Assembly: GCA_043820925.1 (NCBI GenBank)
Contig: JBDRDL010000038.1
Location: forward strand, 1-56,016
Reading direction: 5' to 3'
DNA length: 56,016 nt
From: Methanobacteriota archaeon
GTDB taxonomy: Archaea > Hydrothermarchaeota > Hydrothermarchaeia > Hydrothermarchaeales > JACRDW01
The translations under genes and the position numbers were made by a program. Shown here one piece after another: positions 397 to 26,288 of the stretch. Every line of letters starts with the position of its first letter. The stretch's first letter is position 1. A model generated the notes under the pieces. The model was not told the DNA's origin. It was given only the letters and a program-made list of their open reading frames with translations, and ran no database searches.

Positions 397-2343
397 ATGA
401 TGAAAGTTTTGGGAGTAGATATCCTCGCAGGTTCAGTTGAATCAAAAACCCAGCCGAAGTATTCTCTTGTTCTGCTCGAGGGCGGAGAAATCCGCAGGAG
501 TGAGGAAGTTACCAGGTACGAAATGCTCAGAATGATAAGGGACATTAAACCTGATAGAATAGCCTGCGATAATGTTTTCGAGCTCTTTTCCAAGGATAGA
601 GCAAGAAAGTTCTTCTTTACCCTGCCCCAGAACACGCAGTTGGTGCAGGTTACGGGCAGCCCAACAGCTCCCGAGCCTCTGCACATAGTTGCGAAGAGGA
701 ACGGAATTCACCTGACTTCGAGAGCTGGTTCTATGGAGGAAGCGCTTGCATGTGCCAGGCTTGCTTACTTGAATGTAGGATTTATAGTCAGTGCTTTCGA
801 GGACGAATGCAGGATACTCGTCACCAGGGCGAGGAGCATGGGAAGAGGAGGTCAGAGCCAAGACCGCTACAGAAGAAAGGTGCACAGCGAAGTTGCGCTG
901 AACATAAAAGAGATAAAGCATCTCTTGGATGAGAAAGGGATTAAGTACGAGCTGAGATGCGCAAAAGCAGACTACGGCTGCTCGAGGGGAGAATTTCGAG
1001 TCTGCTGCCCCAAGTCAGAGCTGCGGGGCATAAGGCAGAGGAAGGGTCCAGACGTTCAGATAAAAATTCTGCCAGTGGAGAAGAAAAAATTAGAATTCAC
1101 ATCTCTTGCACCGAGAGATAAGAGCGTTATTCTGGGCATAGACCCGGGAACAACTACGGCACTTGCAGTCGTGGATTTGGATGGCAAATTACTCGAAGTA
1201 TTCAGCTCTCGGAATTTTTCTTTCAGCAAGGTTCTTTCTTTCACGACCAACTATGATATAGCTATAGTTGCGAGCGATGTTGCACCGGCTCCGAAGTTTG
1301 TGGAAAAGGTTTCCTCTTCGTTGAACTCTGTTTTATTCGCTCCTGCCCAGCCGCTGAGCGTGGCAGATAAGGTTGCAATAGTTAATGAGAAATTCTCCAG
1401 GTCTTCGTATGCAAATCCGCACGAGAGGGATGCGCTTGCGGCTGCAGTAAAGGCATACAGCAACTACAGAAATACGCTGGAGCAAGTTGACAAAAAGCTC
1501 GAGGAGCTGCGGCTAACCAAGCTAAAGAGCGAAGTCAGAAAACTTGTTCTGAAAGGCGAAAGCGTGGAGGGGGCAATAGCCAGGCTTACCAGGCGCAGGG
1601 AAGAGGTCAAGAAGGAGGAAAAGCCGGAGGCTATTCCAGACGAGCACCGCAGAATAATAAAAACTCTGAGAGACGAGATTCAAATTTTGAAAGAGGATAG
1701 GGAAGAGCTTCAGAAAGCGTTGAGAGAGAGCAGGCAAAAGATAGCAGAACTCGAGAGGAAGCTGGCATACGTAACTACCCAAGAGTCCAGAATAATGAGG
1801 AGGGAAAGAGAGATTGCCTACCGGGAGAAAGAAATTCAGGCACTTAAATTTAGACTTTATGAAGAGAAAATGCTCAGGGAAAATCTCCAGAAAAAATTGA
1901 ACGAGCTCCAGAGGATAAACTTGCTTGAGTCGTCTGGCAATTTGAGCCTGCTTAAGGTAATCCCTCAGTTTACGAAAGAAAAAATTTTTGGAGTTAGGGA
2001 TGTGATTAAAAGCGGCGACATGCTTTATATCTTAGACGCAAGCGGAGGAGGCGGCTCAACTGCAGAGAAGCTTTTGGAGCTGAATCCAAGAGCAATAGTT
2101 GCAGACAAAGAAAAAATGTCTCATCCGGCCAGAGAAGTTTTTAAAGATGCGATAATAATCTCGCCAGATAGATTAAAAATAAATCTAATCGAAAATTTCG
2201 GCATAGTCGAGAGCAACGCTCTGGAAGAAGAAATAAAAAAAGAGAGAGAAAGAATGAAAATTGAAAGTGCAGTAAGAAGAGAGAAATTGTTGGAAAGCAT
2301 TATCGAGGAGTATAGGCAAAGGAGAAAAGGGGTGGCTAAATGA
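397..2343 (+). CDS. Conserved archaeal DUF460/COG2433-type protein (RNase H-fold-like N-terminal regions plus long coiled coil)
   Basis: 648-aa ORF. N-terminus MKVLGVDILAGS and internal ILGIDPGTTTALAVVDLDGK resemble RuvC/RNase H-fold motifs. Central region is heptad-rich and charged (EELQKALRESRQKIAELERKL). Confidence 0.7.
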   Translation: MMKVLGVDILAGSVESKTQPKYSLVLLEGGEIRRSEEVTRYEMLRMIRDIKPDRIACDNVFELFSKDRARKFFFTLPQNTQLVQVTGSPTAPEPLHIVAKRNGIHLTSRAGSMEEALACARLAYLNVGFIVSAFEDECRILVTRARSMGRGGQSQDRYRRKVHSEVALNIKEIKHLLDEKGIKYELRCAKADYGCSRGEFRVCCPKSELRGIRQRKGPDVQIKILPVEKKKLEFTSLAPRDKSVILGIDPGTTTALAVVDLDGKLLEVFSSRNFSFSKVLSFTTNYDIAIVASDVAPAPKFVEKVSSSLNSVLFAPAQPLSVADKVAIVNEKFSRSSYANPHERDALAAAVKAYSNYRNTLEQVDKKLEELRLTKLKSEVRKLVLKGESVEGAIARLTRRREEVKKEEKPEAIPDEHRRIIKTLRDEIQILKEDREELQKALRESRQKIAELERKLAYVTTQESRIMRREREIAYREKEIQALKFRLYEEKMLRENLQKKLNELQRINLLESSGNLSLLKVIPQFTKEKIFGVRDVIKSGDMLYILDASGGGGSTAEKLLELNPRAIVADKEKMSHPAREVFKDAIIISPDRLKINLIENFGIVESNALEEEIKKERERMKIESAVRREKLLESIIEEYRQRRKGVAK

Positions 2344-2395
2344 GGCGAAGAGCTTATAAACAACAACTACACAGGAAATACAAGGAGGTAGAGAG

Positions 2396-2611
2396 ATGGT
2401 CTATGTCGTGAATGGTTTGGAATACCTGGGTACAAAGCTGAAAACCGGAGCTGAAAAGAAGAGATTTGTAACTTTGAAGAAAAGCGGCACAATGCCGAGC
2501 AAGGACGAGGTTGTTGCACTAGCCAAGAAAAACCCGAAGGTAAAGAAAGTTTGGGTAATGCAAATCGAGGGCAACAAGTGGAAGAAAGCAATGAATGTGA
2601 TAAATCTCTAA
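2396..2611 (+). CDS. Small basic hypothetical protein (71 aa)
   Basis: ATG preceded by AAGGAGG (2382-2388) at 7-nt spacing; lysine-rich, no recognisable domain. Confidence 0.4.
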   Translation: MVYVVNGLEYLGTKLKTGAEKKRFVTLKKSGTMPSKDEVVALAKKNPKVKKVWVMQIEGNKWKKAMNVINL

Positions 2612-2700
2612 GCCGGCATAGCATACGGCTATCTCAAGCTTTAATAGGCGTTGCATTTGGCGCTGTGCTTTCGCTGGCGAACTTGCAGTGGTTTATCTGA

Positions 2701-2735
2701 CCACATAGCATTAAGTCTGCGTAAATGCTATGTGG
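2701..2735. other. Perfect 12-bp stem / 11-nt loop hairpin in a long non-coding gap
   Basis: ccacatagcatt (2701-2712) is the exact reverse complement of aatgctatgtgg (2724-2735). Confidence 0.6.
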
Positions 2736-2839
2736 TGCTAGTTCCGTTACACTTCACTAGTGGCAATGTTTATAATCGGCGTCTGGATAGGGGACTGGTT
2801 GGAAGCCAAGATAAAAAGAGGAAGTTCGGGATAGAGCGG

Positions 2840-2881
2840 AATACCGTCAGGTAGGCGTCAAGCGATTCGGTCTTCCGCAAT
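2840..2881. repeat. Interspersed repeat, module X (aataccgNNaggtaggcgcaa...cttgctNacgcaat family)
   Basis: aataccgtcaggtaggcgtcaagcgattcggtcttccgcaat; homologous copies at 16897, 24092 and 45172. Confidence 0.8.
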
Positions 2882-2923
2882 AGCGAAGCTAGTGCGCAAG
2901 ACCTGCGCTCTTGCTCACGCAAG
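2879..2923. repeat. Interspersed repeat, module Y (aatagcgaagctagtgcgcaagac...ctcttgctNacgcaag)
   Basis: Near-identical copies at 10489 and 16772. Related copies at 4898/4939 and, in reverse orientation, at 32914. Internal hairpin gcaaga/tcttgc. Confidence 0.85.
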
Positions 2924-2974
2924 GAAGATGGCATTTCTCGCCAGCTTCCTATCGGAAATCTTGCTTACGCAATG
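2922..2974. repeat. Interspersed repeat, modules Z+W (aggaagatggca...gccagcttcc + cggaaatcttgcttNcgcaa)
   Basis: Same two-module arrangement at 4974-5027. Z also occurs reversed at 50753-50790 and as a variant at 51711-51737. Confidence 0.8.
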
Positions 2975-3538
2975 CTACTCTATCATTCTTATTATATCTG
3001 CCTTTGTTATTATCCCCACAACCTTGCCTCTTTCCACGACCAGAACCGCAGGATTTACCTCCACCATCTTTGAAACTGTCTTAATGTCTGTGTTCTTGCT
3101 TATAGTTGGGAATCCGTCGTTCATTATCTCTTCGATTCTTTTGACAGGAATTTTTGATATATCTTTTCCTGAAGAAATCTCCTTCACAACTCTGGCTTCT
3201 GAAATGCTCCCAACCTGCGCATTATTTTCTAGTACCGGCAGCTGGGAAATTTCGTACTTCTCCATTAACTTGTTTGCAGTTCCTATCGTGTCGTTGGGCT
3301 TTACGTGAATAACTGGAGACTTCATTATATCAACTGCACAGAGCTCTTTCTTTACCTCCCCGGCTTTAAGCGCATCCAATATTTTCTTGAGAGTCGAAGT
3401 TCTCGGGTCTATGTCTCCGGCTTCAATTCTTGCTATAAGAGACTGGCTGACCTTAGCTTTTGCAGCAAGCTCTGTCTGCGTTAATCCTGCTCTCAACCTG
3501 TAGTTGCGTAAATCTTCAGGACTCGGTATCTCGTACAT
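2975..3538 (-). CDS. XRE-type HTH plus tandem CBS-domain transcriptional regulator
   Basis: N-terminus LRNYRLRAGLTQTELAAKAKVSQSLIARIEAG (HTH_3-like), followed by a CBS-pair-like region (VDIMKSPVIHVKPNDTI..., IITKADIIRMIE). Confidence 0.8.
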   Translation of the reverse strand: MYEIPSPEDLRNYRLRAGLTQTELAAKAKVSQSLIARIEAGDIDPRTSTLKKILDALKAGEVKKELCAVDIMKSPVIHVKPNDTIGTANKLMEKYEISQLPVLENNAQVGSISEARVVKEISSGKDISKIPVKRIEEIMNDGFPTISKNTDIKTVSKMVEVNPAVLVVERGKVVGIITKADIIRMIE

Positions 3539-3539
3539 C

Positions 3540-4223
3540 TCACTTTGCTTCTTTCTCTTTCAGCTTCTTTTCTGCAGCTTTGGCAACCGCATCTTTCAAA
3601 CCCCAGCCTATCGCAATTCCGAGACCAACACCAACACCTATAGCTATTCCATACGCAATTGGAGTTATCAGAGCGTATATTATCGTCGTCTTTATCTTGA
3701 ACTGGTCGAGCGCCATGACGAGTATCATGAGATACAGCGAGATTCTTATCACGAAGGTTACGGCATTTATATACTCAATTTTCAGCTCTTTTGTCGTAGT
3801 TTTGATGAACCCTACGATAAAATCAACTGCAATCAAGCCGCCGAGCAGTATTATAATCCCTGCGACCAGGTTCGGAATATACAGCAGGGCATCCCTCAGA
3901 AATGCGGTTAGAAACTCTATGTTGAGAATATTTACCGCTGCCATCAGAGCAACTGCATAAATGAACCATCTTATCATCAGATCAGAAATACCGACTAACT
4001 GCACTCCGCTTTTTTCAATATACTCCCCAACAACCGTTTTCCTTATTAATTCGTTTAATCCGGCCTTGTCCAGTGCATCGGATATTGCCCTTCCGAAAAC
4101 TCTGCCGACGTACAATCCAACTAACAGCACTGCCAAAGCAGCAATTATTTTTAGAATATACATTGCAGCGTCGGCTACCGCTCTTCCAGCAGTAGCGTCC
4201 AGGAATGAAATCATATCTACCAT
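3540..4223 (-). CDS. Integral membrane protein with conserved-TM-helix repeats (MscS-associated type)
   Basis: Multiple hydrophobic spans and a lysine-rich C-tail. Start moved to ATG at 4223 because GGAGG lies 7 nt upstream (rc of 4231-4237). Confidence 0.6.
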   Translation of the reverse strand: MVDMISFLDATAGRAVADAAMYILKIIAALAVLLVGLYVGRVFGRAISDALDKAGLNELIRKTVVGEYIEKSGVQLVGISDLMIRWFIYAVALMAAVNILNIEFLTAFLRDALLYIPNLVAGIIILLGGLIAVDFIVGFIKTTTKELKIEYINAVTFVIRISLYLMILVMALDQFKIKTTIIYALITPIAYGIAIGVGVGLGIAIGWGLKDAVAKAAEKKLKEKEAK

Positions 4224-4973: not shown

Positions 4974-5027
4974 AGGAAGATTGGCAAACCCGCCAGCTTC
5001 CTTGCGGAAATCTTGCTTGCGCAAGGG
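4974..5027. repeat. Repeat modules Z+W
   Basis: aggaagattggcaaacccgccagcttcc + ttgcggaaatcttgcttgcgcaaggg; parallels 2922-2974. Confidence 0.8.
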
Positions 5028-5047
5028 CTTTTTTTAAAAGGGCTCAT

Positions 5048-5824
5048 TTACATTCTCGCCCCTTTCAGTGCGTCTTTGCACCCGCACTCCCGCTCTTCCG
5101 GAATATTATTTATTACCTCGACCAAAATCTTCTTCAGATTTTCTTGATTTTTCTTTACGACGTCTTTCACTTCTGTAGCTGTGAGCTTCTTCTTGGCTAT
5201 GCCTGCAGCGAAGTTGGTTACTGTGCATATTGCAGCATAACAAATCTCAGCCTCTCTTGCCAGAGTTACTTCTGGCACGCCAGTCATTCCAACGATGTCG
5301 CACCCGAGTTTGTGGAGTACTCTAATCTCTGCAGGCGTTTCGAATCTGGGACCTTGAGTGCAGGCATAGACTGCACTGCTGAAGACTTTTCCTGCGATTT
5401 TCCCACTAGCTGTCGCTAGGGCTTTCCTTAACTCTGGGCAGTATGGTTCAGAAACATCTATGTGAACTACTTCCTTGTCGTAAAAAGTAGAATCTCTGCC
5501 TTTAGCGAAGTCTATGAAGTCGTGAGGTATAACAATGTTTCCGGGAGCAAGTCTTTTGTTGATTGCACCAACAGAATTGGTCGAGATTATCCTTTCAGCC
5601 TTGAGCATTTTGAGAGCAAATATATTAGCCCTGTAGTTGACTTTGTGGGGCGGTAAAGCATGATTTTTTCCATGCCTCGGCAGAAATAGTATCTCATTTC
5701 CCAGCAGCTCTCCGACAGCGATTTCTGGAGAGCTTCCGTACGGAGTTTTTATTATCCTCCTCCCGAGCTCTTTAAAAATTTTCGGGTCATAAATTCCAGT
5801 TCCGCCTATGACTGCGATGCCCAT
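5048..5824 (-). CDS. mtnP: S-methyl-5'-thioadenosine phosphorylase
   Basis: MGIAVIGGTGIYD..., FLPRHGKNHALPPHKVNYRANI, GCDIVGMTGVPE: PNP/MTAP family signatures. Confidence 0.9.
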   Translation of the reverse strand: MGIAVIGGTGIYDPKIFKELGRRIIKTPYGSSPEIAVGELLGNEILFLPRHGKNHALPPHKVNYRANIFALKMLKAERIISTNSVGAINKRLAPGNIVIPHDFIDFAKGRDSTFYDKEVVHIDVSEPYCPELRKALATASGKIAGKVFSSAVYACTQGPRFETPAEIRVLHKLGCDIVGMTGVPEVTLAREAEICYAAICTVTNFAAGIAKKKLTATEVKDVVKKNQENLKKILVEVINNIPEERECGCKDALKGARM

Positions 5825-5825
5825 C

Positions 5826-6896
5826 TCAAGCAGCCCTCGTCACCTTGCTTGCCTTCCATTTAGAGCGTATGTACAGGAAGCCGAGCATCGAGAGCACCAA
5901 GCCAGAGGTTATCCACGTTGCTAGCTCAACGTTGTTTATTTCCCCGATCAGAAACTGGCTAGCTGCACTTATGGTTACCCCGAAGGCTACTACAAACACC
6001 ATCATTACCATATACTTCCATGCCCCCTGCTTCTCGAGTACAGCGTCTATGCTCTTGCCAATTAGAGCAACGATAGCTGCGAAACTCAGAAAATTAATTG
6101 CGCCCGAAGAGAATACCGGCACTGCCTCTCTAATGCTGCGGAATGCGATACCTCTGCCCACAACTTCGTCGTATCCTACAGCTATTCCGACAACAGCTAT
6201 AAGTATCGAGACTACATAGGTGAAGAAGCTTATTTTCCCAGTAGCCACGGAGGACCTGAATTCTTCAAATATTCTCTGCACCGTACCTTCCAAACCAAAT
6301 CCCTTTATCACCAAGAATACGCCGACTGTGCCGGCAATTAGCCTCCAGCTCGCCGCCCCGAGCAGCATGTACAGTATTGCAGCAATTCCGGGCACACCTA
6401 TCAGGAGCTTGGCAAGTTTCGGGTCGCTAACGATATCTCTAAGAAAATCTTGAATGACGTAGTAGGTGCTCTCAAGTTTCTCAGCCTGCCTTACTATAAC
6501 CCTCTTCACAGCTATCACATTCGTTTTCGACTGGACTATCGGCAGGAGATACTCATCTTCTGCGCCGTCAGTTACGACAATAACTCCATCCGGCTTATTT
6601 TTTTCAAGAGCGTCATCAAGCTGTCTGGAAATTTTGGTATCGGATTCAACGCCGAGATTTTCGCTTCCAACGAGGGCAACGACCTCTACCTCTCTTCCCT
6701 CTTTCTTAAAGTAGTCTCCCACTTTTATGGCTTCGAAAAGAGCATTGGTGTCTGATTCGCTCGGGTCTGCCAAGCCGAGCCTTAAAGCTACATCCAGCAA
6801 TTTCTCTCTTCCGTAGATAGGACCGTCTTCGCCAATTTTCCTGAAAATGTCAGCATCCCTGTCGATGCAGATTACCAGTATTTTGTTATACTCCAT
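5826..6896 (-). CDS. DUF373-family archaeal membrane protein
   Basis: Soluble N-terminal domain (ILVICIDRDADI..., VIVVTDGAEDEY) followed by several TM helices, as in DUF373 proteins. Confidence 0.7.
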   Translation of the reverse strand: MEYNKILVICIDRDADIFRKIGEDGPIYGREKLLDVALRLGLADPSESDTNALFEAIKVGDYFKKEGREVEVVALVGSENLGVESDTKISRQLDDALEKNKPDGVIVVTDGAEDEYLLPIVQSKTNVIAVKRVIVRQAEKLESTYYVIQDFLRDIVSDPKLAKLLIGVPGIAAILYMLLGAASWRLIAGTVGVFLVIKGFGLEGTVQRIFEEFRSSVATGKISFFTYVVSILIAVVGIAVGYDEVVGRGIAFRSIREAVPVFSSGAINFLSFAAIVALIGKSIDAVLEKQGAWKYMVMMVFVVAFGVTISAASQFLIGEINNVELATWITSGLVLSMLGFLYIRSKWKASKVTRAA

Positions 6897-6898
6897 AA

Positions 6899-8134
6899 TT
6901 ACACCAGGTTGAATCTTCTCAGCAGATATATATCTTCCAGTGTTAGCTTCTCTCCTTTTTTGAATCTCCCATAAACGCTTTTGGCTTCTTCCTTTAATTC
7001 TCTATCGCTTTTTGGCTTTAGCTCAGTTTCAGCTTCCACCCTCTTAATACTTTTCTCAAGTTCTTTAATCTTCAGCACGCAAGAGTTCAGTTCCTCATTC
7101 AGCTTGTCCAGCGCAGGGTCTATTTCCTTTCTCTTGCTGTTCAGTTCGTCTATTTTGGCTTCTGCTTCCTTAATTTCTGCAACCGCCTGCAAGAATTTTT
7201 CATGCTGCTGCTGGGATTCCTTGGATAATTTTAAAATTTCCTCGTGCACTTTTCTTGAGCTGCTTTTATGCCTGTCGATTTCTTTTGAAAGTTCTATCAG
7301 CTCCTTGTACCCTTTCAGCTCCTGATTTAGCTTTTTAATTCTGTCTACGAGAGCATCTTCCTTTTTGATTTCCATTACGCTTGTCTGAAGCTTCCATTCC
7401 AGAGCGTCTATTTCTTTCTGGATTTTCTCGTAGTCCCCCTTTGGAGCACTTTCCTTGAGCTTTTTGTATTTTGCAACCAGAGCTTTTACGTGCTCATTCA
7501 TTTTTTCCCTTTCTTCTTTTAACTTTTTAACCTCCCAGTTGAGCTCGTCCCTGAGCTTTTTGGATTCGTTCGCTTTCTTGTTTTTTGTCTTTATTTTCTG
7601 TATCAATTCTCTCTTTTTATTTCCGAGCTCTCCGAGGGCTGCCTTCTTCTCAACAATGTCCCTCTTCATGTCCTGCATTCTCAGCTCGAGCATGTCTCCC
7701 TCCCTTATCATCGCCTCCATGTCGAGCTCTCCAAAAATATAGGGGAGGATTCTGGTAAGGTCTTTCTCGTATATTATAACGTCTGCTGCCTTGCCGGGCG
7801 CCGGCTTCGAATTAAATGCCATGCACAGTCCTGCTTTTTCGAAAGCTGATAGGTCATTTGCACTGGAGACTACTGCGCTGTCTCGCAGCGAAACGCCAGC
7901 TTTCTTTACTATCTTCTCAAATGCCTTGGTTCTGGAGTCTTCACCGGTTAGCGGTCCGGAAATCTCGTTGGTAATCGAGTAGTCCAAGCCCAGCTCTTTC
8001 TTTATCGTGTCCGCAACCGCACTATTTCCGCTGATTATGCCTGTTTTTATTCCCCTCTCCTTTAGCTTTGCAATCGTCTCCTTTGCTCCTTCCATTATCA
8101 ACGTGCCGTCAAGGTCGAACAGAACTAACTTCAT
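6899..8134 (-). CDS. HAD-superfamily phosphatase (PSP-like) fused to a long archaeal coiled-coil region
   Basis: HAD motif I MKLVLFDLDGTL and later SGNS / K / SSANDL motifs. The C-terminal ~270 aa are charged heptad repeats (COG1340-like). Confidence 0.75.
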   Translation of the reverse strand: MKLVLFDLDGTLIMEGAKETIAKLKERGIKTGIISGNSAVADTIKKELGLDYSITNEISGPLTGEDSRTKAFEKIVKKAGVSLRDSAVVSSANDLSAFEKAGLCMAFNSKPAPGKAADVIIYEKDLTRILPYIFGELDMEAMIREGDMLELRMQDMKRDIVEKKAALGELGNKKRELIQKIKTKNKKANESKKLRDELNWEVKKLKEEREKMNEHVKALVAKYKKLKESAPKGDYEKIQKEIDALEWKLQTSVMEIKKEDALVDRIKKLNQELKGYKELIELSKEIDRHKSSSRKVHEEILKLSKESQQQHEKFLQAVAEIKEAEAKIDELNSKRKEIDPALDKLNEELNSCVLKIKELEKSIKRVEAETELKPKSDRELKEEAKSVYGRFKKGEKLTLEDIYLLRRFNLV

Positions 8135-8143
8135 GCGCTACAC

Positions 8144-9418
8144 CTAAAAGAATTCATAGTATTTATATGCTTCCTCCTTATCAAAGCAGAATTTTACTTT
8201 TTTAAAGTTATTCTTCATCTCAATAACATCTCTCCTAACCTTTGCGATATCTTTATCGATTATCACTCTCTTAAAGAGCCCGGCTATCTCTTCCATCTCC
8301 TTTTCTTTCATCCCGACCCTCGTCAGTTCCTGGGTTCCGAGCCTGATTCCAGAGGGATTTTTGACATTGGTTATATCATCCCACGGCAGCAGATTCTTAT
8401 TTATAAGTATATTTGCCTTTTCGAGAGTTTCCGCAACCTTGCTGCCACCACCATTCTTTGAAACGTCCACAACTACGTGGTGCGATTGCGTGAATTCTTT
8501 TTTCTCGCACAGCACATTAAAGCCGAAGTTGTGCAGAGAGTGTGCAAGTGCCTTTGAATTTTTAATCATCTGCTTTGCATACGCCTCGCCGAAGTCCAGC
8601 ATTTCTGCAAGAGTGACAGCGAGTCCTGCCAGGTGATGCAGGTGGTGATTCGAAACCAAGCCTGGAAAAACTGCCCTGCTTATCTTTTTGCTGTATTCTT
8701 CCTTTGAAAGTATCAATCCTCCCTGAGGACCAGGAAGTGTTTTGTGCCGTGAGCTGGTAACTATGTCTGCGCCCTCTCTCAGCGGGTCCTGAAACTGCTT
8801 TCCTGCGATTAAACCCAGAACATGCGCAGCATCGTAAACAATCGCAGCACCTGCTTCGTTTGCGGCTTCTCTCAGCTCCTTCACAGGATGCGGGAATAGA
8901 AACACGCTTGCCCCGAAAAGCAGTATTTTTGGCTTCACTTCCCTGATTTTTTCAATGCTTTTTTCAACGTCTATGTTCATAGCTTCGCTGTCGAAAGGGA
9001 AGGATTTTACCTTAAGGCCTCTTACCCCTGCTGCGCTTAACTCGGCATGGCTTATGTGACCGCCGTGCGGCACCTGCAGAGCCATCATCGTATCCCCCGG
9101 CTGCGCAAGCGCAGAGTAAGCTGCGAGGTTTGCGACCGTGCCTGAAGTAGGGAGCACATTCACATATTCTGCTCTGAAAAGTTTTTTTGCCAGTTTTACT
9201 GCAATAATTTCAACTTCGTCTATGTACTTGCATCCCTGGTAAAGCCTTTTCCCCGGAGCACCCTCGGCATAGCGATGCCCGAAGTCACAGGCAGTAACTT
9301 CTCTAACAAGCCCACTCGAAACATTTTCACTCGCTATCATAGTTAGGCACTCCCCCATCCATTTGTGGTGCTTCTTTGCCGCTTCTCTCACCTTCAGGGC
9401 ATGCTTTTTAAAGCTCAT
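8144..9418 (-). CDS. glyA: Serine hydroxymethyltransferase
   Basis: LTMIASENVSS, HRYAEG, TSSRHKTLPGPQGG (PLP-lysine region). Confidence 0.9.
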   Translation of the reverse strand: MSFKKHALKVREAAKKHHKWMGECLTMIASENVSSGLVREVTACDFGHRYAEGAPGKRLYQGCKYIDEVEIIAVKLAKKLFRAEYVNVLPTSGTVANLAAYSALAQPGDTMMALQVPHGGHISHAELSAAGVRGLKVKSFPFDSEAMNIDVEKSIEKIREVKPKILLFGASVFLFPHPVKELREAANEAGAAIVYDAAHVLGLIAGKQFQDPLREGADIVTSSRHKTLPGPQGGLILSKEEYSKKISRAVFPGLVSNHHLHHLAGLAVTLAEMLDFGEAYAKQMIKNSKALAHSLHNFGFNVLCEKKEFTQSHHVVVDVSKNGGGSKVAETLEKANILINKNLLPWDDITNVKNPSGIRLGTQELTRVGMKEKEMEEIAGLFKRVIIDKDIAKVRRDVIEMKNNFKKVKFCFDKEEAYKYYEFF

Positions 9419-9440
9419 TCCATTTCCTCTCCAAAAAAAA

Positions 9441-10451
9441 TCAGCATAAGAGTATATTAATTTTGCTTGCCGCTTTTTTAAGCCTGTTCATTATCGCAAG
9501 TCCGATTCCTTTTTCCTCAAAGTTTTCTGAAATTATTACGTCCACGCCTTCTTCATCGAGTTTTCTTAAAGCATTGAATAAATTTCTCGCAACCTCTCGC
9601 AGGTTTTTTCTGCTTCCAACGACTTCGACTATTCCGCTGTACATCCGGGCATTTTCCCTCGTCGCCAAAATACCTATTTTTTTTCCTGACAGTTTCCTAA
9701 CAATCTCTGGAATCTTCTCTGCATCTAATAAGATTAACTCCGCTTTTGGAGCATAGTGGCGGTATTTCATCCCGGGAGAGCGGGGTTTTCCAAGCGGAAT
9801 GGACTGCTTTTCAACTTTTCCAAGCGCTCTTTTGAGTTCTTCAAAAGTGACACCGCCAGGTCTCAGAATAGCCGGCACAGAAGCAGTTAAATCTAACACC
9901 GTTGATTCCAGTCCTATATTCGCTGCACCGCCGTCGATTACTGCATCGATTTTTCCCTTTAAATCCTGCATCACGTGCTTCGCACTTGTCGGACTCGGCC
10001 TGCCTGAGATGTTTGCGCTCGGCGCTGCGATAGGAACGCCAGATGCAGAGATTAGACCAAGCGCAGTTTTATTGTCCGGCATTCTTATCGCAACTGTATC
10101 CAGACCTGCGGTTGTCACGCCCGGCAGTACTTCTGACTTTTTTAAAATCAGAGTTAAAGGACCTGGCCAGAATCTCTCAGCCAGAATTTTTGCTTTCTCT
10201 GGAACTTCTTTTGCAAGTTTTTTCAGCTCTTCTTTTTTTGCGATGTGCACTATTACCGGATTATCCAGGGGTCTCCCTTTAACTTCAAAAATTTTCTCAA
10301 CCGCTTCAACATCTAAGGCGTTTGCTCCAAGCCCGTACACTGTCTCAGTCGGGAATGCGACGAGACCGCCTCTTCTTATAATCCCTGCAGCAGTTTGAAT
10401 TTTTCTCTTGCTCGGTCTCCGGGGGTTTACTTTTAAGAGAATTGTCTCCAT
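9441..10451 (-). CDS. sua5: Threonylcarbamoyl-AMP synthase Sua5/TsaC with Sua5 C-terminal domain
   Basis: GGLVAFPTETVYGLGANAL, WPGPLTLIL, SANISGRPSPTSA, plus a ~120-aa C-terminal domain. Confidence 0.9.
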   Translation of the reverse strand: METILLKVNPRRPSKRKIQTAAGIIRRGGLVAFPTETVYGLGANALDVEAVEKIFEVKGRPLDNPVIVHIAKKEELKKLAKEVPEKAKILAERFWPGPLTLILKKSEVLPGVTTAGLDTVAIRMPDNKTALGLISASGVPIAAPSANISGRPSPTSAKHVMQDLKGKIDAVIDGGAANIGLESTVLDLTASVPAILRPGGVTFEELKRALGKVEKQSIPLGKPRSPGMKYRHYAPKAELILLDAEKIPEIVRKLSGKKIGILATRENARMYSGIVEVVGSRKNLREVARNLFNALRKLDEEGVDVIISENFEEKGIGLAIMNRLKKAASKINILLC

Positions 10452-10488
10452 GTTCTTTTCTTGATAAGATTAATATTTAAAGATGCTC

Positions 10489-10533
10489 AATAGCGAAGCT
10501 AGTGCGTTAGACCCGCGCTCTTGCTTACGCAAA
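10489..10533. repeat. Interspersed repeat, module Y
   Basis: aatagcgaagctagtgcgttagacccgcgctcttgcttacgcaaa. Confidence 0.85.
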
Positions 10534-10542
10534 GCATGAAGC

Positions 10543-10773
10543 ATGAAAAAAGAGAAGAAAGAAAGGTTGGAGAAGGAGAGAAAATATAGAGAAGTAGTGA
10601 AAAGATACAGGACATTAAACTTCCTTGGATTCATTTTTATAACAGCAGGCTTAATCTTGACTTTCTTTGAGCAGCCCGCAGGCCACCTATTTATTTCTGT
10701 AGGCATTGCAATGGCCGTGGCTTTCCTCTTCTTCTCTATTTACTCTCTGATAAAAAAGCGTGGAATGCGGTGA
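10543..10773 (+). CDS. Small two-TM membrane protein (hypothetical)
   Basis: Charged N-terminus followed by two hydrophobic helices; no family recognised. Confidence 0.35.
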   Translation: MKKEKKERLEKERKYREVVKRYRTLNFLGFIFITAGLILTFFEQPAGHLFISVGIAMAVAFLFFSIYSLIKKRGMR

Positions 10774-10775
10774 AA

Positions 10776-10817
10776 GCGTCTGCCCGAACCAGATACACGC
10801 TGTTAGGCGGCATTGCA
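10776..10817. repeat. Left inverted repeat flanking the hicAB cassette
   Basis: Its rc, gcaatgccgcctaacagcgtgtatctgg, matches gcaatggcgcctaacggctgagcgtatctga at 11329. Confidence 0.65.
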
Positions 10818-10820
10818 GCT

Positions 10821-11060
10821 TTATACTCTTTCATAGACCTTTAGAAATTCCTCTCTTGGTATTCCGGCTTGTCTGCAAATCGTTCTTAAAGTAGAGCCTT
10901 TTATCTTCTTGTGATTTGGCATGGTTAAAGGCGTTTTGCTGCCATCTGGATTTTCTCTAACCATTGAAATATGGTTTCCCACTCTTACGACTTTAAATCC
11001 CAGAATTTCAAAAGTCTTTATAACTTTCCGTTTTGGCGCATCCTTCGGAAACTTCATCAC
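10821..11060 (-). CDS. hicA: HicA-family mRNA interferase toxin
   Basis: KVIKTFEILGFKVVRVGNHISM...PNHKKIKGSTLRTICRQAGIPREEF matches the YcfA/HicA pattern. Confidence 0.85.
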   Translation of the reverse strand: MMKFPKDAPKRKVIKTFEILGFKVVRVGNHISMVRENPDGSKTPLTMPNHKKIKGSTLRTICRQAGIPREEFLKVYERV

Positions 11061-11272
11061 ATCGCCACTTCTGCAATGAAGGTTTCTATGATCTCTCCCG
11101 TTTCAAAAGCCTCTTTTCCAAAAGTTTCTATGTGAAACTTGATAGCAGATTTCACATCCGCGAGCGCTTCCTCGTAAGTATCACCTTCTCCAACCACCAC
11201 ACCCTTTAATCCCAGAGGATATGCCACATAGCCTTCAGGATGTTTTTCAACGATTATTTTTATTTGTCTCAT
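11057..11272 (-). CDS. hicB: HicB-family antitoxin (UPF0150-type)
   Basis: EKHPEGYVAYPLGLKGVVVGEGDTYEEALADVKSAIKFHIE; 4-nt ATGA overlap with hicA. Confidence 0.8.
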   Translation of the reverse strand: MRQIKIIVEKHPEGYVAYPLGLKGVVVGEGDTYEEALADVKSAIKFHIETFGKEAFETGEIIETFIAEVAM

Positions 11273-11326
11273 TTTCTCACCGATCTTTTATTTGATTTCA
11301 GCTTTATAAAGGATATAATTAACCTC

Positions 11327-11424
11327 GGCAATGGCGCCTAACGGCTGAGCGTATCTGAAGTTCCGACCGCAGGGAGGAATTTGGGCGGAGTGCCGAAGGC
11401 ACGAAGCCAGATATGCTCTGTTAT
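11327..11424. mobile_element. MITE-like hairpin element (right hicAB flank)
   Basis: cctaacggctgagcgtatctg ... cagatatgctctgtta are imperfect inverted termini about 45 nt apart; both arms are homologous to the element at 10776-10817. Confidence 0.5.
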
Positions 11425-11465
11425 ATGAAGTTGCCCCCATTTCCTTTTCACTGCTTCTTATCTGA

Positions 11466-11984
11466 TTATTGTTGTCTGTTTAATATTATATTACTCCAAC
11501 CTTCCAAGCTACGATCGCCTATTTCGTACTTTTTGAGTGATTGAATTTGTACTCTCAATTCTTCAGTTGAGAATTTTATTAATGAAGTAATAAGCGGACT
11601 AATAGCTTTTTGCCTTGATTTAGCACGAACTTCTTGCAACCCCAAGCGTCTTGCAAATTCGTTAATGTCTCTTAGGGATGGTAAAACTGTCTTTGCAACT
11701 AAGTCGGTATAAAAGTTCATTAATAGTTGGTACTTTCCAAGATCTACGCCTTCAAGAGTAATTAGCGCCCTCGGAATCGATTGCCCTTGTTTTGGTCTTG
11801 TCTCTCGTGTCGTTTTTGGAATAGTTCGGGCTATCTTCGCAACCTCTGTTAGAATAAGTGGCAGGCGTTGTCTCATTTCTGGTGATGAAATAGATTCTGC
11901 AAGCAACTCAAAAGGTTCAGGACCGTATTTTTTTAGCAATTTTACTATATCGACCAACAAATCTAGTTCTTGCTTTTTTCTCAT
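11466..11984 (-). CDS. Uncharacterised 172-aa protein coupled to the ParA-like ATPase
   Basis: 4-nt ATGA overlap with the upstream ATPase gene. Helical N- and C-terminal parts flank a basic, low-complexity centre (TIPKTTRETRPKQGQSIPR). No domain recognised. Confidence 0.7.
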   Translation of the reverse strand: MRKKQELDLLVDIVKLLKKYGPEPFELLAESISSPEMRQRLPLILTEVAKIARTIPKTTRETRPKQGQSIPRALITLEGVDLGKYQLLMNFYTDLVAKTVLPSLRDINEFARRLGLQEVRAKSRQKAISPLITSLIKFSTEELRVQIQSLKKYEIGDRSLEGWSNIILNRQQ

Positions 11985-12829
11985 AGACCTATCCTTCCCG
12001 CAAATTCCTCAGCAAATGCATGAAATTTACTAGCTTGAGACGACCTTGCATAAGATGTGCTAAAAATTGGGCGTCCTTCTCGAGCTCCTTTTGGATATGA
12101 ACGCGAGTAGCTGACTTCAGCGTTAAAAACGTACCATCCATGCTTTGAGGCTATACTTTTTACCTCGTTCTTGGACTTAACCTCCTCCGGAACGTATCCT
12201 GATGTATGATTGAAAACTATCCCAGCAAGATCTAAATTGTGATCTCCATAAGGGCCGACCTTGAATTCTTCCATAGAACGTACTAGTAGTGGAAGGCCTA
12301 TCGAAGATAGATACTCTGGCTTGACGGGAACAAGTAAGTAATCACTTGCCAGATAGGCTGCTGTAGTTAAAACGGACTCAGTCGGTGCACAATCCTGCAG
12401 AATAAGATCATACTCATTTTCAATCTTTGAAATGAGTTTTGCAAGGAGACTCTCCTTCTGCCCAGGATTTCGCAATGAATATGCCAGCTCTAAACGAGAG
12501 GGAATCAGATCGATACAACTGCCATCAGAATATGAAACAACATTGTAGAGCACCGATTTTGGAAGTAGCGGTATTGGTTTACTTTTGCCTGGCGTGTGTG
12601 TAAGCTGTTCGAATACATCCCAAACTGTAGGAATGTTTTTCTTAAGAATATCTTCATATTTGCGGACTCCAATAAGGTACTGACTCGCATTGAATTGTGG
12701 ATCTAGGTCAACAACCAATACTTTCTTGTTCCATTTGGACAGCCCAGCAAACTGCCAAGCTAGATTGACAGCCAATGTAGATTTTCCTACACCGCCTTTC
12801 ATGTTGATTAACGAAACTTTCTTAGCCAT
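11981..12829 (-). CDS. ParA/Soj/MinD-family deviant Walker A ATPase
   Basis: INMKGGVGKSTLAVNLA (deviant Walker A), VVDLDPQFN (A'), LILQDCAPT (Walker B). GGAGGTGA lies 5 nt upstream of the ATG. Confidence 0.85.
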   Translation of the reverse strand: MAKKVSLINMKGGVGKSTLAVNLAWQFAGLSKWNKKVLVVDLDPQFNASQYLIGVRKYEDILKKNIPTVWDVFEQLTHTPGKSKPIPLLPKSVLYNVVSYSDGSCIDLIPSRLELAYSLRNPGQKESLLAKLISKIENEYDLILQDCAPTESVLTTAAYLASDYLLVPVKPEYLSSIGLPLLVRSMEEFKVGPYGDHNLDLAGIVFNHTSGYVPEEVKSKNEVKSIASKHGWYVFNAEVSYSRSYPKGAREGRPIFSTSYARSSQASKFHAFAEEFAGRIGL

Positions 12830-12907
12830 GTTTAATCACCTCCTATATTGTAATACCTTGCGATTATATTTGCTTTTTGTTTAACGCGGGCAATTTCATA
12901 TAACTCC

Positions 12908-12988
12908 TTATATACGAACATGGTTCGCCTATCCTGCCGGTTTATATACGAACTTCGCACTGTCTCCTTAAGGAGCGAAGTTTATATT
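12908..12988. promoter_or_regulatory. Iterated TATA-like / palindromic repeats in the parA-bud32 divergent intergenic region
   Basis: ttatatacgaac at 12908 and 12942. Palindrome cgaacatggttcg at 12915-12927. Near-palindrome aacttcgc..ctccttaaggag..gcgaagtt at 12951-12982. tttatatt about 25 nt upstream of the bud32 ATG. Confidence 0.5.
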
Positions 12989-13011
12989 CAATTAAAAATA
13001 AAGAAAGCTCT

Positions 13012-13629
13012 ATGGAAATGATAGGCAAGGGCGCAGAGGCGAACATTTACTTGCAGGAGGGCAGGGTAATCAAGGAGAGGATTTCCAAGGCTTACAGGGT
13101 AAAAGAATTAGACGAAGCGCTCAGAAAGACGAGAACCAAAAGGGAGGCTAAATTAATCTCTCTTGCGAGAAGAGCAGGTGTCCCAACGCCTTTTATCCTG
13201 GACGTAAATAATCCAGATACCACCGTCGAAATGAGCTTTGTTAGGGGCATACAGGTGAAAAAACTGCTGAACAAAGCATCAAAAAAAGATAGAGAGCGAA
13301 TTTGCAGGGAAATTGGCAGAAGCGCTGGAAAACTGCACGGTAATAATATAATTCACGGCGATTTGACAACTTCTAATATGATTCTCGCAGACAACAGGAT
13401 TTACTTCATAGATTTCGGTCTCGGAGAAGTAAGCGAGGCAGTCGAGGATAAGGGAGTAGATTTGCTGGTATTTAAAAAATCGTTGCGTTCTACACACTAT
13501 AAATTCGAGAATGAGTGTTTCAAAGCTTTTGTTAACGGTTACTCCAAAGAATATAGAGCGTGCAAAAACGTTCTGGAGAGATTAAAAATAATAGAGCTGA
13601 GGGGGAGATATTTCGCCGAGCGGTTTTAG
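13012..13629 (+). CDS. bud32: KEOPS subunit Bud32 (atypical RIO-like kinase), stand-alone
   Basis: IGKGAEANIY (P-loop-like), TRKEAKLISLARRAGVPTP, IIHGDLTTSNMIL, FIDFGLG, LRGRY tail. Confidence 0.9.
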   Translation: MEMIGKGAEANIYLQEGRVIKERISKAYRVKELDEALRKTRTKREAKLISLARRAGVPTPFILDVNNPDTTVEMSFVRGIQVKKLLNKASKKDRERICREIGRSAGKLHGNNIIHGDLTTSNMILADNRIYFIDFGLGEVSEAVEDKGVDLLVFKKSLRSTHYKFENECFKAFVNGYSKEYRACKNVLERLKIIELRGRYFAERF

Positions 13630-14159
13630 TAAGTGCATACGATGGCACTGCCTGCATGCAGCTCAAAGTATGGGCAGGGTTTCATGCATTCTTTTATCTC
13701 AACTTCACTCCTCTTCCAGGGACACTCGACAGAGCTGTTTTTGATTGAAATACTCCTTCTGGGGTGACCTTCTTTGAACCACTTAAGAGAAGGTGCTGTA
13801 GACTCGTAGGTGTTCTTGTTCACCTGCTTTATGTACTTCAGTGCTTGCAATATCAATAGCGCCCTTGCGACAACGGTCTTTTTCAACGGAACCTGCTTGT
13901 AGAGATCCTTCTCCCTGAAGATTGGGGGTAGGGTATAGAGATATTTCTTTACGCTTTCTACCTCTTCCTTGGATATGGAGGGGTTGTTTTTCCGTAAAAG
14001 CACATATTTGGTGTTAGTTCTCAAAATTACTCCTTTTTCAAATTCTAGTAAATCCCCATTCAATTTTGAGAGCTTTTCATCTATTTTAGACAGCTTTCTT
14101 TCTAATTCTTCTTTTGCTTTCACTAAACCTTTTATCCTCTGTATGCTGATTTTCATCAA
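13626..14159 (-). CDS. Hypothetical protein (coiled-coil N-terminus, Cys-rich C-terminus)
   Basis: 177-aa ORF; its end converges on and overlaps the end of bud32 by 4 nt; no family recognised. Confidence 0.5.
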   Translation of the reverse strand: MMKISIQRIKGLVKAKEELERKLSKIDEKLSKLNGDLLEFEKGVILRTNTKYVLLRKNNPSISKEEVESVKKYLYTLPPIFREKDLYKQVPLKKTVVARALLILQALKYIKQVNKNTYESTAPSLKWFKEGHPRRSISIKNSSVECPWKRSEVEIKECMKPCPYFELHAGSAIVCTY

Positions 14160-14224
14160 TTAATCTTTCAAAATTACCGTCAAAAAACCAAAAAATTTAT
14201 GTTTTAGGAAAAAAAAGCAGAGCC

Positions 14225-14776
14225 ATGGTCTACTTCATAACCTCGAGTATGCACAAATATCTGGAAACAAGGGAAATATTTAGAAGCCACGGGCTTGAAT
14301 TAGGGAGAATATCCAAAAATTACACAGAAATACAGGCAGATACCCTTGAAGAAGTAGTAAAAGAGGCTCTCAAGCGCATAAACAGGAAAAAAGTATTTAT
14401 TGAGGATGCCGGTATTTTTATAAAAGCCCTAAAGGGCTTCCCTGGCGTTTACTCACGCTACATCGAGGACACAATCGGAAATCAGGGAATTTTAAGATTG
14501 ATGCGTGATGTTAAAAAGCGCAGTGCTATCTTCAAGTCAGTCGTGGGCTACAGAGACGCTGAAATAAAGCTCTTCAAGGGCGAAGTTTTCGGCAGCATAG
14601 CCTTCGAAGAGAGAGGCAGCAGGGGCTTCGGCTACGACCCCATATTCATACCAAAAGGTTATAATAAGACCTTTGCAGAGGATTATGAGCTGAAGCAGAG
14701 AATTTCGCACAGGAGAAAAGCAGTAGAAAAACTTGCAAAATTTCTCAGCACTTCGGCATCAAGCTTTTCACAATAG
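14225..14776 (+). CDS. Non-canonical purine NTP pyrophosphatase (Ham1/RdgB/ITPase)
   Basis: FITSSMHKYLE, EDAGIFIKALKGFPGVYS, GFGYDPIF, SHRRKA. Confidence 0.85.
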   Translation: MVYFITSSMHKYLETREIFRSHGLELGRISKNYTEIQADTLEEVVKEALKRINRKKVFIEDAGIFIKALKGFPGVYSRYIEDTIGNQGILRLMRDVKKRSAIFKSVVGYRDAEIKLFKGEVFGSIAFEERGSRGFGYDPIFIPKGYNKTFAEDYELKQRISHRRKAVEKLAKFLSTSASSFSQ

Positions 14777-14792
14777 CAGGTACGGATGATGC

Positions 14793-14896
14793 CTCGTGCC
14801 GAGACCTACCGCTACACTTGCCGAAGGCAAGTGGTAGAAAAGCGGTCAAGAGCGAGTGAGCAACGAGTGAAACGAGTTGTGAACGAGGGATTGAAA
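14793..14896. repeat. Composite repeat block forming the rps15 upstream region
   Basis: ctcgtgccgagacc also occurs at 51569. Hairpin ctacacttgcc gaa ggcaagtggtag. Quasi-tandem acgagtga-like units: gcgagtga, acgagtga, acgagttgtga, acgaggga. Confidence 0.7.
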
Positions 14897-25615: not shown

Positions 25616-25933
25616 ATGAGAAGTCCAAAGAGAAAAATGCCAGCAGTAGGCAAATGTTTTGATCACTTAGGTGGGCAGTTAGCACCTATGCTATTCACCC
25701 GTCTGCTTGAAATGGAATGGATAAAACCAGAAGAAGGCAAAAAGACCGTATTTGAAGTTACAGAGAAAGGTAAGAAAAGATTTAAAGAGGTATTTAATAT
25801 TGATGTGTCGAAGCTTGAGGAATACACTAAAAAAAGTTTAGATGAATTATTTGGAAGCTTACCAGAACTGGACTTAAAGCGAATTAGGAAAGAGCACTCT
25901 GAGGAAGTCGAGAATGAACATTTTGGTCGATAG
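25616..25933 (+). CDS. VapB-like antitoxin with atypical DNA-binding N-domain
   Basis: DHLGGQLAPMLFTRLLEMEWI resembles the wing domain seen in some ArsR-type regulators. The acidic C-tail (GSLPELDLKRIRKEHSEEVE) is antitoxin-like. It overlaps the PIN gene by 20 nt. Confidence 0.55.
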   Translation: MRSPKRKMPAVGKCFDHLGGQLAPMLFTRLLEMEWIKPEEGKKTVFEVTEKGKKRFKEVFNIDVSKLEEYTKKSLDELFGSLPELDLKRIRKEHSEEVENEHFGR

Positions 25934-26288
25934 TTTTGCTTGGTTAGAGCTCCTTCAGGGTTCAGAAAAAGGCAAAAGATTTTTACAAATTCTCAAAGAG
26001 AATAGAGGAGGAATTTATACTTCTGTGTTAAATCTTTACGAGATTCGATACAGAGTAGAAGAACTCAGGAATGCAAAGACAGCAGATGAATTTGTTAAAA
26101 TCGTTGAGAGCTATGCAAAGATTCTTGATGTCGCTAGAGGCGTTGCTATTCAAGCCTCAAAAATAAAGTTAAAGATGAAAAAGATAGGGGCAATAGATTG
26201 TCTTATCCTCGCCTCCGCAAAGATTAACAATTTAAAGGTTTTAACTGGTGACCCACATTTTGATGGGGTAGAAGGAGTAATTAGATAG
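25914..26288 (+). CDS. vapC: PIN-domain toxin VapC
   Basis: ILVDSFAW (Asp1), YEIRY (Glu), IGAIDCLILA (Asp), LTGDPHF (Asp). Confidence 0.8.
   Translation: MNILVDSFAWLELLQGSEKGKRFLQILKENRGGIYTSVLNLYEIRYRVEELRNAKTADEFVKIVESYAKILDVARGVAIQASKIKLKMKKIGAIDCLILASAKINNLKVLTGDPHFDGVEGVIR

Follow-up and report, generated by a model that had tools for sequence, protein, structure and literature searches.

ParA ATPases are known for positioning DNA and other cargo, and the locus described here, a parA gene followed by the gene of a 172-residue partner protein, resembles several of the systems in which they act. It lies in a 56,016-nt stretch of DNA from a Methanobacteriota archaeon (contig JBDRDL010000038.1, positions 1 to 56,016; hereafter the window). 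As in the type Ib pairs (ParF-ParG of TP228 and delta-omega of pSM19035), the ATPase is a small ParA that lacks an N-terminal DNA-binding domain, and a small partner gene comes after it; as in McdAB, PomXYZ and ParC-ParP, two genes encode a ParA and a fast-evolving, partly disordered adaptor; and as in SegAB and the ParA-ParB-AspA system of pNOB8, an archaeal ParA-type ATPase is accompanied by an archaea-type small partner. The DNA itself is arranged like the integron cassettes of the Vibrio superintegron and of archaeal clusters of attC sites lacking integrases (CALINs; Ghaly et al. 2022, PMC9668308). In those cassettes genes of one orientation precede an attC hairpin (R''-L''...L'-R') with a G|TT crossover, R'' is complementary to the 5' end of its own cassette, attC sites are homologous within a lineage, content varies between near-identical genomes, and toxin-antitoxin (TA) or defence genes are neighbours. 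We find that parA and the partner gene together make up a single integron-type gene cassette that is self-contained and 1,562 bp long (12903-11342, minus strand). The initial annotation of this DNA had described the gene pair correctly but had missed the integron cassette with its own attC. ParA-adaptor pairs and archaeal and Vibrio integron cassettes were already known; what is new is the unnamed partner family and a cassette that has moved between domains.

The cassette is closed by an attC-like recombination site, a 91-nt hairpin at 11336-11426 (minus strand). It consists of an R'' box ATATAAC (11426-11420), the L'' arm GAGCATATCTG, a variable loop, the L' arm CAGATACGCTC and an R' box GTTAGGC, whose crossover base G is at 11342. 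Six copies of the site could be aligned, all with R'' (A/G)TATAAC and an 11-bp L'' arm on one side of a variable loop and, on the other, an L' arm, a spacer of 4-5 nt and R' GTTnnnn. The 14 pairs of the stem are 89% paired across the alignment, seven of them with compensatory changes, whereas slid controls are 25-42% paired. A covariance model built from these six copies (R1) scores 11336-11426 at 86.5 bits (E about 1e-18 to 1e-20), and a search of the window with the filters off returned this one complete site only. R1 also recovered sites on which it had not been trained: L060 4124-4203, which ends GTTATAT directly before the parA leader of that locus, and L060 728-807, L020 5253-5368 and L067 5389-5494, each at a cassette border. 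Elements of the same kind recur in L020 and L001 behind unrelated groups of co-oriented open reading frames (ORFs).

Because integrons recombine at G|TT, an attC is expected to have an R'' box that pairs with G and the six bases opening its own cassette. The 5' boundary of the parA-partner cassette, G|TTATATGAAATTGCCC (12888-12904, minus strand), conforms to this rule: its start, GTTATAT (12904-12898), is the exact reverse complement of the R'' box ATATAAC, and its 17 nt (12904-12888) are complementary to GGGCAACTTCATATAAC (11436-11420) at 16 of 17 positions. At the equivalent 5' boundary in L060, a full R1-type attC stops exactly. The rule holds exactly at nine of 11 junctions (both in the window, all five in L020, the single one in L060, one of two in L001 and not at the one in L067), the chance of a match being about 1/256 at each, and the L020 junctions include a covarying base (GTTATAC/GTATAAC versus GTTATAT/ATATAAC in the window). 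From the R' box GTTAGGC, a GCCTAAC downstream of hicA was predicted beforehand and was found at 10808-10802. DNA homology between the window and the other archaeal copies extends from about 12919/12905 to about 11419/11348, and conserved DNA reaches about 75-90 nt 5' of parA and 45-120 nt 3' of the partner gene.

The slot that the parA-partner locus occupies, between bud32 and sua5, is variable. In the sibling genome L067, whose flanks are 93-97% identical (window 8102-10775 at 93%, 12968-14809 at 95%; Sua5 96%), a whole segment of 2,192 bp (10776-12967) is absent and the same slot is filled by 1,450 bp carrying a mechanosensitive-channel gene, MscS, and another member of the attC family. The MscS gene, too, appears to be an integron-type cassette (L067 5269-6722), as it follows the R1-type attC at 5389-5494 (R' GTTATAC) and is itself followed by a weak attC-like site (6649-6722, E=0.29). 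The window and L067 carry co-oriented cassettes in an array whose content differs between close strains. The segment, or islet, is modestly AT-rich with a distinct codon choice, as the initial annotation had suspected: its GC content is 0.409, compared with 0.443 on average over the window (sd 0.018), a value as low being reached in 5.4% of equal-sized stretches, and the GC content at third codon positions is 0.29-0.36 in the four islet genes versus 0.40-0.56 in host genes. That it is an insertion, also proposed there, agrees with the different segment in L067. Its position between Sua5 and a Bud32/RIO-type kinase was likewise correct (Pfam), but these t6A neighbours are incidental, since the sua5-bud32 adjacency is not kept in more distant relatives. 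Scans of the islet with Rfam and for tRNAs were negative, and the RNA fold of the downstream region has a z of only -1.8.

The other two islet genes are hicBA, the hicAB cassette that had been noted beside the pair, and they form the next cassette of the same small two-cassette array without integrase (a CALIN). This cassette begins TTAGGC at 11341 and contains a hicB-like antitoxin gene (11057-11272, minus strand; 71 aa, with a weak Pfam match at E=0.022) and the hicA toxin gene (10821-11060, minus strand; HicA_toxin, E=1.8e-13). Its attC is partial (10789-10808, minus strand): the R'' box GCCTAAC (10808-10802) is followed by the L'' arm GCGTGTATCTGG, the L'/R' half is missing, and the R1 search gave no match there. 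A 76-aa ORF with two predicted transmembrane helices (10543-10773, plus strand) abuts this partial site; as it is also present in the sibling (L067 6721-6951), it is a host gene and not part of the islet.

The same pair is found in the Vibrio superintegron. In Vibrio cholerae (L064, about 4976-6620) and V. parahaemolyticus (L062) it is a single cassette, of 1,637 and 1,608 bp respectively, between the attC repeats (Vibrio cholerae repeats, VCRs) of the superintegron. The Vibrio ParA is 67-69% identical to that of the window, and the Vibrio partner matches the hidden Markov model (HMM) of the family at E about 1e-15. The cassette has thus moved between Archaea and Bacteria, and its presence behind archaeal attC sites and Vibrio VCRs is a concrete case of integron-borne cross-domain transfer. 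Two further loci, L020 and L060, are multi-cassette arrays, and L020 has a truncated Phage_int_SAM_4 recombinase ORF just 5' of its parA cassette. In L060, the cassette before parA (808-4203, between two R1-type attC sites) encodes a ParB_N+HTH_ParB protein (272 aa), three ORFs of no known function and a phosphoadenosine phosphosulphate (PAPS)-reductase-like protein (324 aa), and is possibly a multi-gene defence cassette.

The two genes are also inherited together. Some 40 distinct archaeal and bacterial loci have parA immediately 5' of the partner gene, and where both genes are present they usually overlap by 4 nt; L020 has a gap between them, and in L045 no parA was seen beside the partner. 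The hosts are Methanocellales, Hadesarchaea, Methanoperedens, Bathyarchaeota, Chloroflexota, Ignavibacteria and Vibrio. Pairwise identity over 30 distinct pairs averages 64% among the ParA proteins and 32.5% among the partners, and the two distance matrices are correlated (Mantel r=0.53, with none of 2,000 permutations as high). The two genes thus co-occur and co-vary beyond the window. Within the ParA clade, identity is 65-87% across Archaea and Bacteria. The clade behaves as a portable accessory cassette in methanogen-related archaea, Hadesarchaea, Chloroflexota, Ignavibacteria and Vibrio.

The product of parA (11981-12829, minus strand), the first gene of the cassette, is a deviant-Walker-A ATPase of the ParA/Soj type with 282 residues. 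Its catalytic motifs are intact and form a complete set: KGGVGKS with the signature lysine K11 and the P-loop lysine K16, DLDPQ with D41 and D43, and the Walker B residue D146. It matches Pfam AAA_31 (E=8.5e-35, 120.7 bits, cut-off 27) and CbiA (E=5.4e-14, 52.7 bits, cut-off 25.4), which together with the motifs places it among the ParA/MinD ATPases and agrees with the complete ATPase of the initial annotation. All NCBIfam equivalog models (ParA_partition, PrgP, RepA, SopA, MinD and BcsQ) score it under their cut-offs, the best being NF041546 with 79.7 bits versus 180. By alignment to PDB sequences its nearest solved structures are Soj, ParA and the delta protein of pSM19035; SegA and the pNOB8 ParA match weakly (E of 8e-8 and 4e-9, mostly over the P-loop region). 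Longer database entries have N- or C-terminal extensions only, and none among them is a natural fusion of ParA to the partner.

The start codon of the partner gene (11466-11984, minus strand) overlaps the stop codon of parA in an ATGA, as the ORF coordinates had indicated. No family match was found in Pfam, NCBIfam, PADLOC or PHROGs, nor by a profile search of PDB sequences, and a Pfam scan of 63 family members yielded no consistent family. The AlphaFold2 model (31 homologues, predicted local distance difference test (pLDDT) 78.9) is all-helical without any strand, consisting of an N-terminal three-helix domain (residues 1-54), a disordered basic linker (56-67) and a helical C-terminal domain. 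The latter forms five helices when modelled separately (pLDDT 83, predicted template modelling score 0.74) and closes in a conserved tail, GDRSLEGWSNIIL. In Foldseek searches of PDB and BFVD with the whole chain and the C-domain model, nothing fell below E=0.07. The helical ends and basic centre read earlier from the translation are therefore present in the model, and the view that the partner is not ParB, a ribbon-helix-helix (RHH) protein or MinE and belongs to no known family holds against Pfam, NCBIfam, PDB profiles, AlphaFold2 and Foldseek. A SAP/HeH-like motif at residues about 100-135 (E of about 8 to two SAP domains) was considered and set aside as a weak lead unsupported by the 63-member Pfam scan. 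There are 91 close homologues of about 170-183 aa, and an exhaustive profile search matched, at E<1e-3, at least 1,000 clusters formed at 50% identity, 453 of them with E<1e-10; judged from these matches, the partner family is large and unnamed. Invariant positions concentrate in the N-terminal helix (L9, L10, L16, K19, G21 and L28) and in the C-terminal tail (D157, R158, L160, G162, W163, I167 and L168).

A small ParA without an N-terminal helix-turn-helix (HTH), with Soj, ParA and delta proteins as its nearest solved relatives, would be expected in a classical type Ib partition locus, in which ParA, a centromere-binding protein and upstream repeats form a relic of an integrated plasmid or a chromosomal system. 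ParG and ParB stimulate the ATPase through their N-termini, and the partner has a conserved N-terminal helix with an invariant lysine that could be compared with these. The partner, however, is all-helical and lacks the RHH strand; it has no ParB/HTH or SegB match and no detected relative of known structure, and its profile finds no SegB, AspA or pNOB8 ParB among PDB sequences. Partition loci would also be expected on replicons, but neither the archaeal nor the Vibrio partner has a match in 72,556 plasmids. The best plasmid match to the ParA clade in the same collection is only 37% identical and the best match in phage collections 30% identical; IMG/VR viral contigs gave no match, nor did complete E. 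coli genomes when searched with the Vibrio cassette DNA. Moreover, the locus is missing from the 93-97% identical sibling genome. Given a partner that is neither ParB nor RHH, a strain-variable location and the absence from plasmids and phages, we conclude that the pair does not serve segregation of a replicon, plasmid or chromosome, and regard a partition locus as highly improbable.

The repeats upstream of parA, which the initial annotation had put forward as centromere or operator sites, are the remaining point in favour of partition. They lie mainly in 63 nt specific to the window (12905-12967), 5' of the crossover and between the host junction at 12968 and 12904. The 12-mer TTATATACGAAC occurs there in exactly two copies (12908-12919 and 12942-12953; 0.10 expected, with none of 100 shuffles containing two), palindromes are present (ATAGGCGAAC-CAT-GTTCGTATAT), and a 13-nt inverted repeat joins 12946-12958 to 12975-12987. 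In L020, L001 and L009, but not in L060, a palindrome like these is found ahead of the parA cassette. The repeats and palindromes are real, but they are not an established centromere: they are located at a recombination junction and are conserved in only a few close archaeal copies rather than across the family. From their position and sequence they would seem to resemble remnants of a recombination site at least as much as a centromere, and the 63 nt could represent a mini-attC, an operator or what is left of an attI-like site.

On the other side of the crossover, six archaeal copies share a nearly unchanged 75-nt leader that runs up to the start of parA. Within it lies a candidate internal promoter (12862-12880, minus strand) made up of AAAAAG and AAATATAAT, which is TATA- or -10-like, and after this comes the Shine-Dalgarno sequence GGAGGTGAT. 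The arrangement AAAAAG-N4-ATATAA(T/G) within the leader (12862-12904) could serve both as an archaeal B recognition element with TATA box and as a bacterial -10 box, and may be relevant to expression in both domains. The cassette thus carries a conserved leader of its own and, in all likelihood, its own promoter.

Small, fast-evolving and partly disordered adaptors are the rule in ParA/MinD positioning systems, and the partner, with its basic disordered linker and helical ends in the AlphaFold2 model, would suit such a role. A system of the McdAB or PomXYZ type, distributing along the nucleoid either some structure of the host or assemblies of the partner itself, would also be at home among the ordinary metabolic neighbours of one locus (L017). 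Yet the pair is not accompanied by cargo genes, and its context is different in every genome. A 1.6-kb cassette moves between Archaea and Bacteria, so its cargo would need to be universal. Unlike McdAB, PomXYZ and ParC-ParP, this pair is found in arrays of conflict genes and often with its parA pseudogenised, in several lineages. The McdAB-like layout that had been proposed is therefore unsupported, and we consider cargo positioning quite unlikely.

The genes that do accompany the pair are largely those of genetic conflict. Besides hicBA in the window, they include a cyclic-oligonucleotide-based anti-phage signalling system (CBASS) and QueC (L005), a restriction endonuclease and MazG (L008), a SacI restriction-modification (R-M) system with an insertion sequence and SIR2 (L015), Thoeris (L018), ParE/Phd and ParDE cassettes in Vibrio, and Abi_C, DNA methylase and ParB+PAPS-reductase cassettes in L020 and L060. 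This company fits the mobile two-gene conflict module that the initial annotation had offered as an alternative better than it fits partition. Published work describes archaeal integrons as CALINs for the most part, with many TA and R-M cassettes, TA being the commonest annotated class (PMC9668308), and sedentary chromosomal integrons as rich in defence systems (bioRxiv 10.1101/2024.07.02.601686). From the neighbouring TA, R-M, Abi, CBASS and Thoeris genes and the absence of the pair from plasmids and phages we infer a conflict function, and from a cassette that works in both domains without cargo genes a universal substrate, most simply DNA. Our overall reading, held with moderate confidence, is that of an integron-type cassette in a CALIN with hicBA, probably with a DNA-directed role in conflict, either defence or addiction.

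A mechanism can be proposed on this basis. ParA would act as an ATP switch whose ATP-bound sandwich dimer binds DNA non-specifically, and the partner would be its dedicated regulator or adaptor, controlling ATP turnover. The partner might dock on ParA through its invariant N-terminal helix (LL..L..K.G), its C-terminal GDRSLEGW..IIL tail, or both, leaving the faster-evolving middle to recognise a target. The pair could then act against phages or other mobile DNA, or as an addiction module. A bolder version, in which it is the founding member of a new ParA/MinD-based immune or anti-mobile-DNA system with a sensor or adaptor of novel fold, spread as an integron cassette, is put forward only tentatively and is more doubtful than probable; the libraries and literature searched contained no ParA-type defence system, and the literature no report of a ParA integron cassette. 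The Vibrio copies can be cloned directly and so provide a route to what a non-segregating ParA switch does.

The decay of the cassette bears on addiction. In four independent lineages parA is a pseudogene while the partner ORF is full length: it carries an in-frame stop and a frameshift in L001-L004 (about 7137-8004), a frameshift in L005-L007/L025 (7157-8004), an in-frame stop in L020 (1310-2146) and a 5' truncation in L010 (84-620). A programmed frameshift was considered for these split ParAs and rejected, since there is an additional in-frame stop in L001 and a stop in L020, and L010 lacks the 5' end. Loss of parA ahead of the partner gene is the order of decay expected if parA encoded a toxin, and would suit a costly or toxic ATPase. 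In a TA-like module one protein, most likely ParA, would be harmful when free and the other would neutralise it, thereby stabilising the cassette array in the way of the TA cassettes in Vibrio superintegrons; free ParA could over-coat the nucleoid or block replication or division. The two overlapping reading frames with their own leader, the hicBA neighbour in the window, the ParE/Phd and ParDE cassettes in Vibrio and the rank of TA among archaeal integron cassettes (PMC9668308) all point the same way. The loci, however, were collected by partner motifs, so the decay pattern is biased and carries no statistical weight, and parA is 1.6 times longer than the partner gene, so that even four of four is not significant. 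We know of no ParA-type toxin. An ATPase-first order and a size of 1.4 kb are also unusual for type II TA, and ParA is the more conserved protein, with all catalytic residues kept, hence we judge an addiction module unlikely, though less so than cargo positioning.

Several observations weigh against a conflict cassette of the integron type. The attC call depends on our own model and rules, and recombination is read from the sequence. Unlike in complete integrons, no integrase was found in the 56-kb window by a scan for tyrosine-recombinase motifs only, and it is on this result that the array is called CALIN-type; the attC of hicBA is partial, and the left host junction (12968) differs from the G|TT crossover (12904). 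Around the pair, simple R''/R' complementarity is absent from most bacterial metagenome loci, so we do not claim integron-cassette status for every copy, and some loci hint at other routes of integration, namely the tRNA-fragment repeats of L017 and the 126-nt direct repeats of L013. As to function, the context of L017 is without defence neighbours, and integron arrays hold many non-conflict genes, such as MscS in L067, which makes guilt by association weak. No PADLOC model (PADLOC-DB v2) fits the pair, the sole match being of P-loop level between ParA residues 3-43 and PDC-M28B (E=3.9e-7), and the literature searched reports no phenotype of such a cassette.

The repeats at these loci are of different kinds. 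In L017 a tRNA 3'-end fragment (its T-arm, GGGTTCGAATCCC, reading on the other strand) is repeated four times in tandem, at 6420-6468, 7923-7971, 8899-8947 and 10709-10757, spaced 1-1.8 kb apart, with the ParA-partner pair between the last two; this suggests tandem tRNA-targeted integrations instead of attC recombination in that genome. Direct repeats surround the pair in L013, an Ignavibacteria metagenome-assembled genome (3030-3155 and 8029-8154; 126 nt, 92% identity), and in L042, a metagenome contig (539-575 and 6599-6635; 37 nt including GTTAAC), and these may be att sites of other element types.

Elsewhere in the window, a second TA-like pair is found at 25616-26288, where a 105-aa ORF overlaps a PIN-domain gene (VapC-like, E=2.4e-18). 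No R1-type attC was detected there, and the pair lies at the border of a further stretch of low GC (25.5-27.5 kb, 0.38-0.41).

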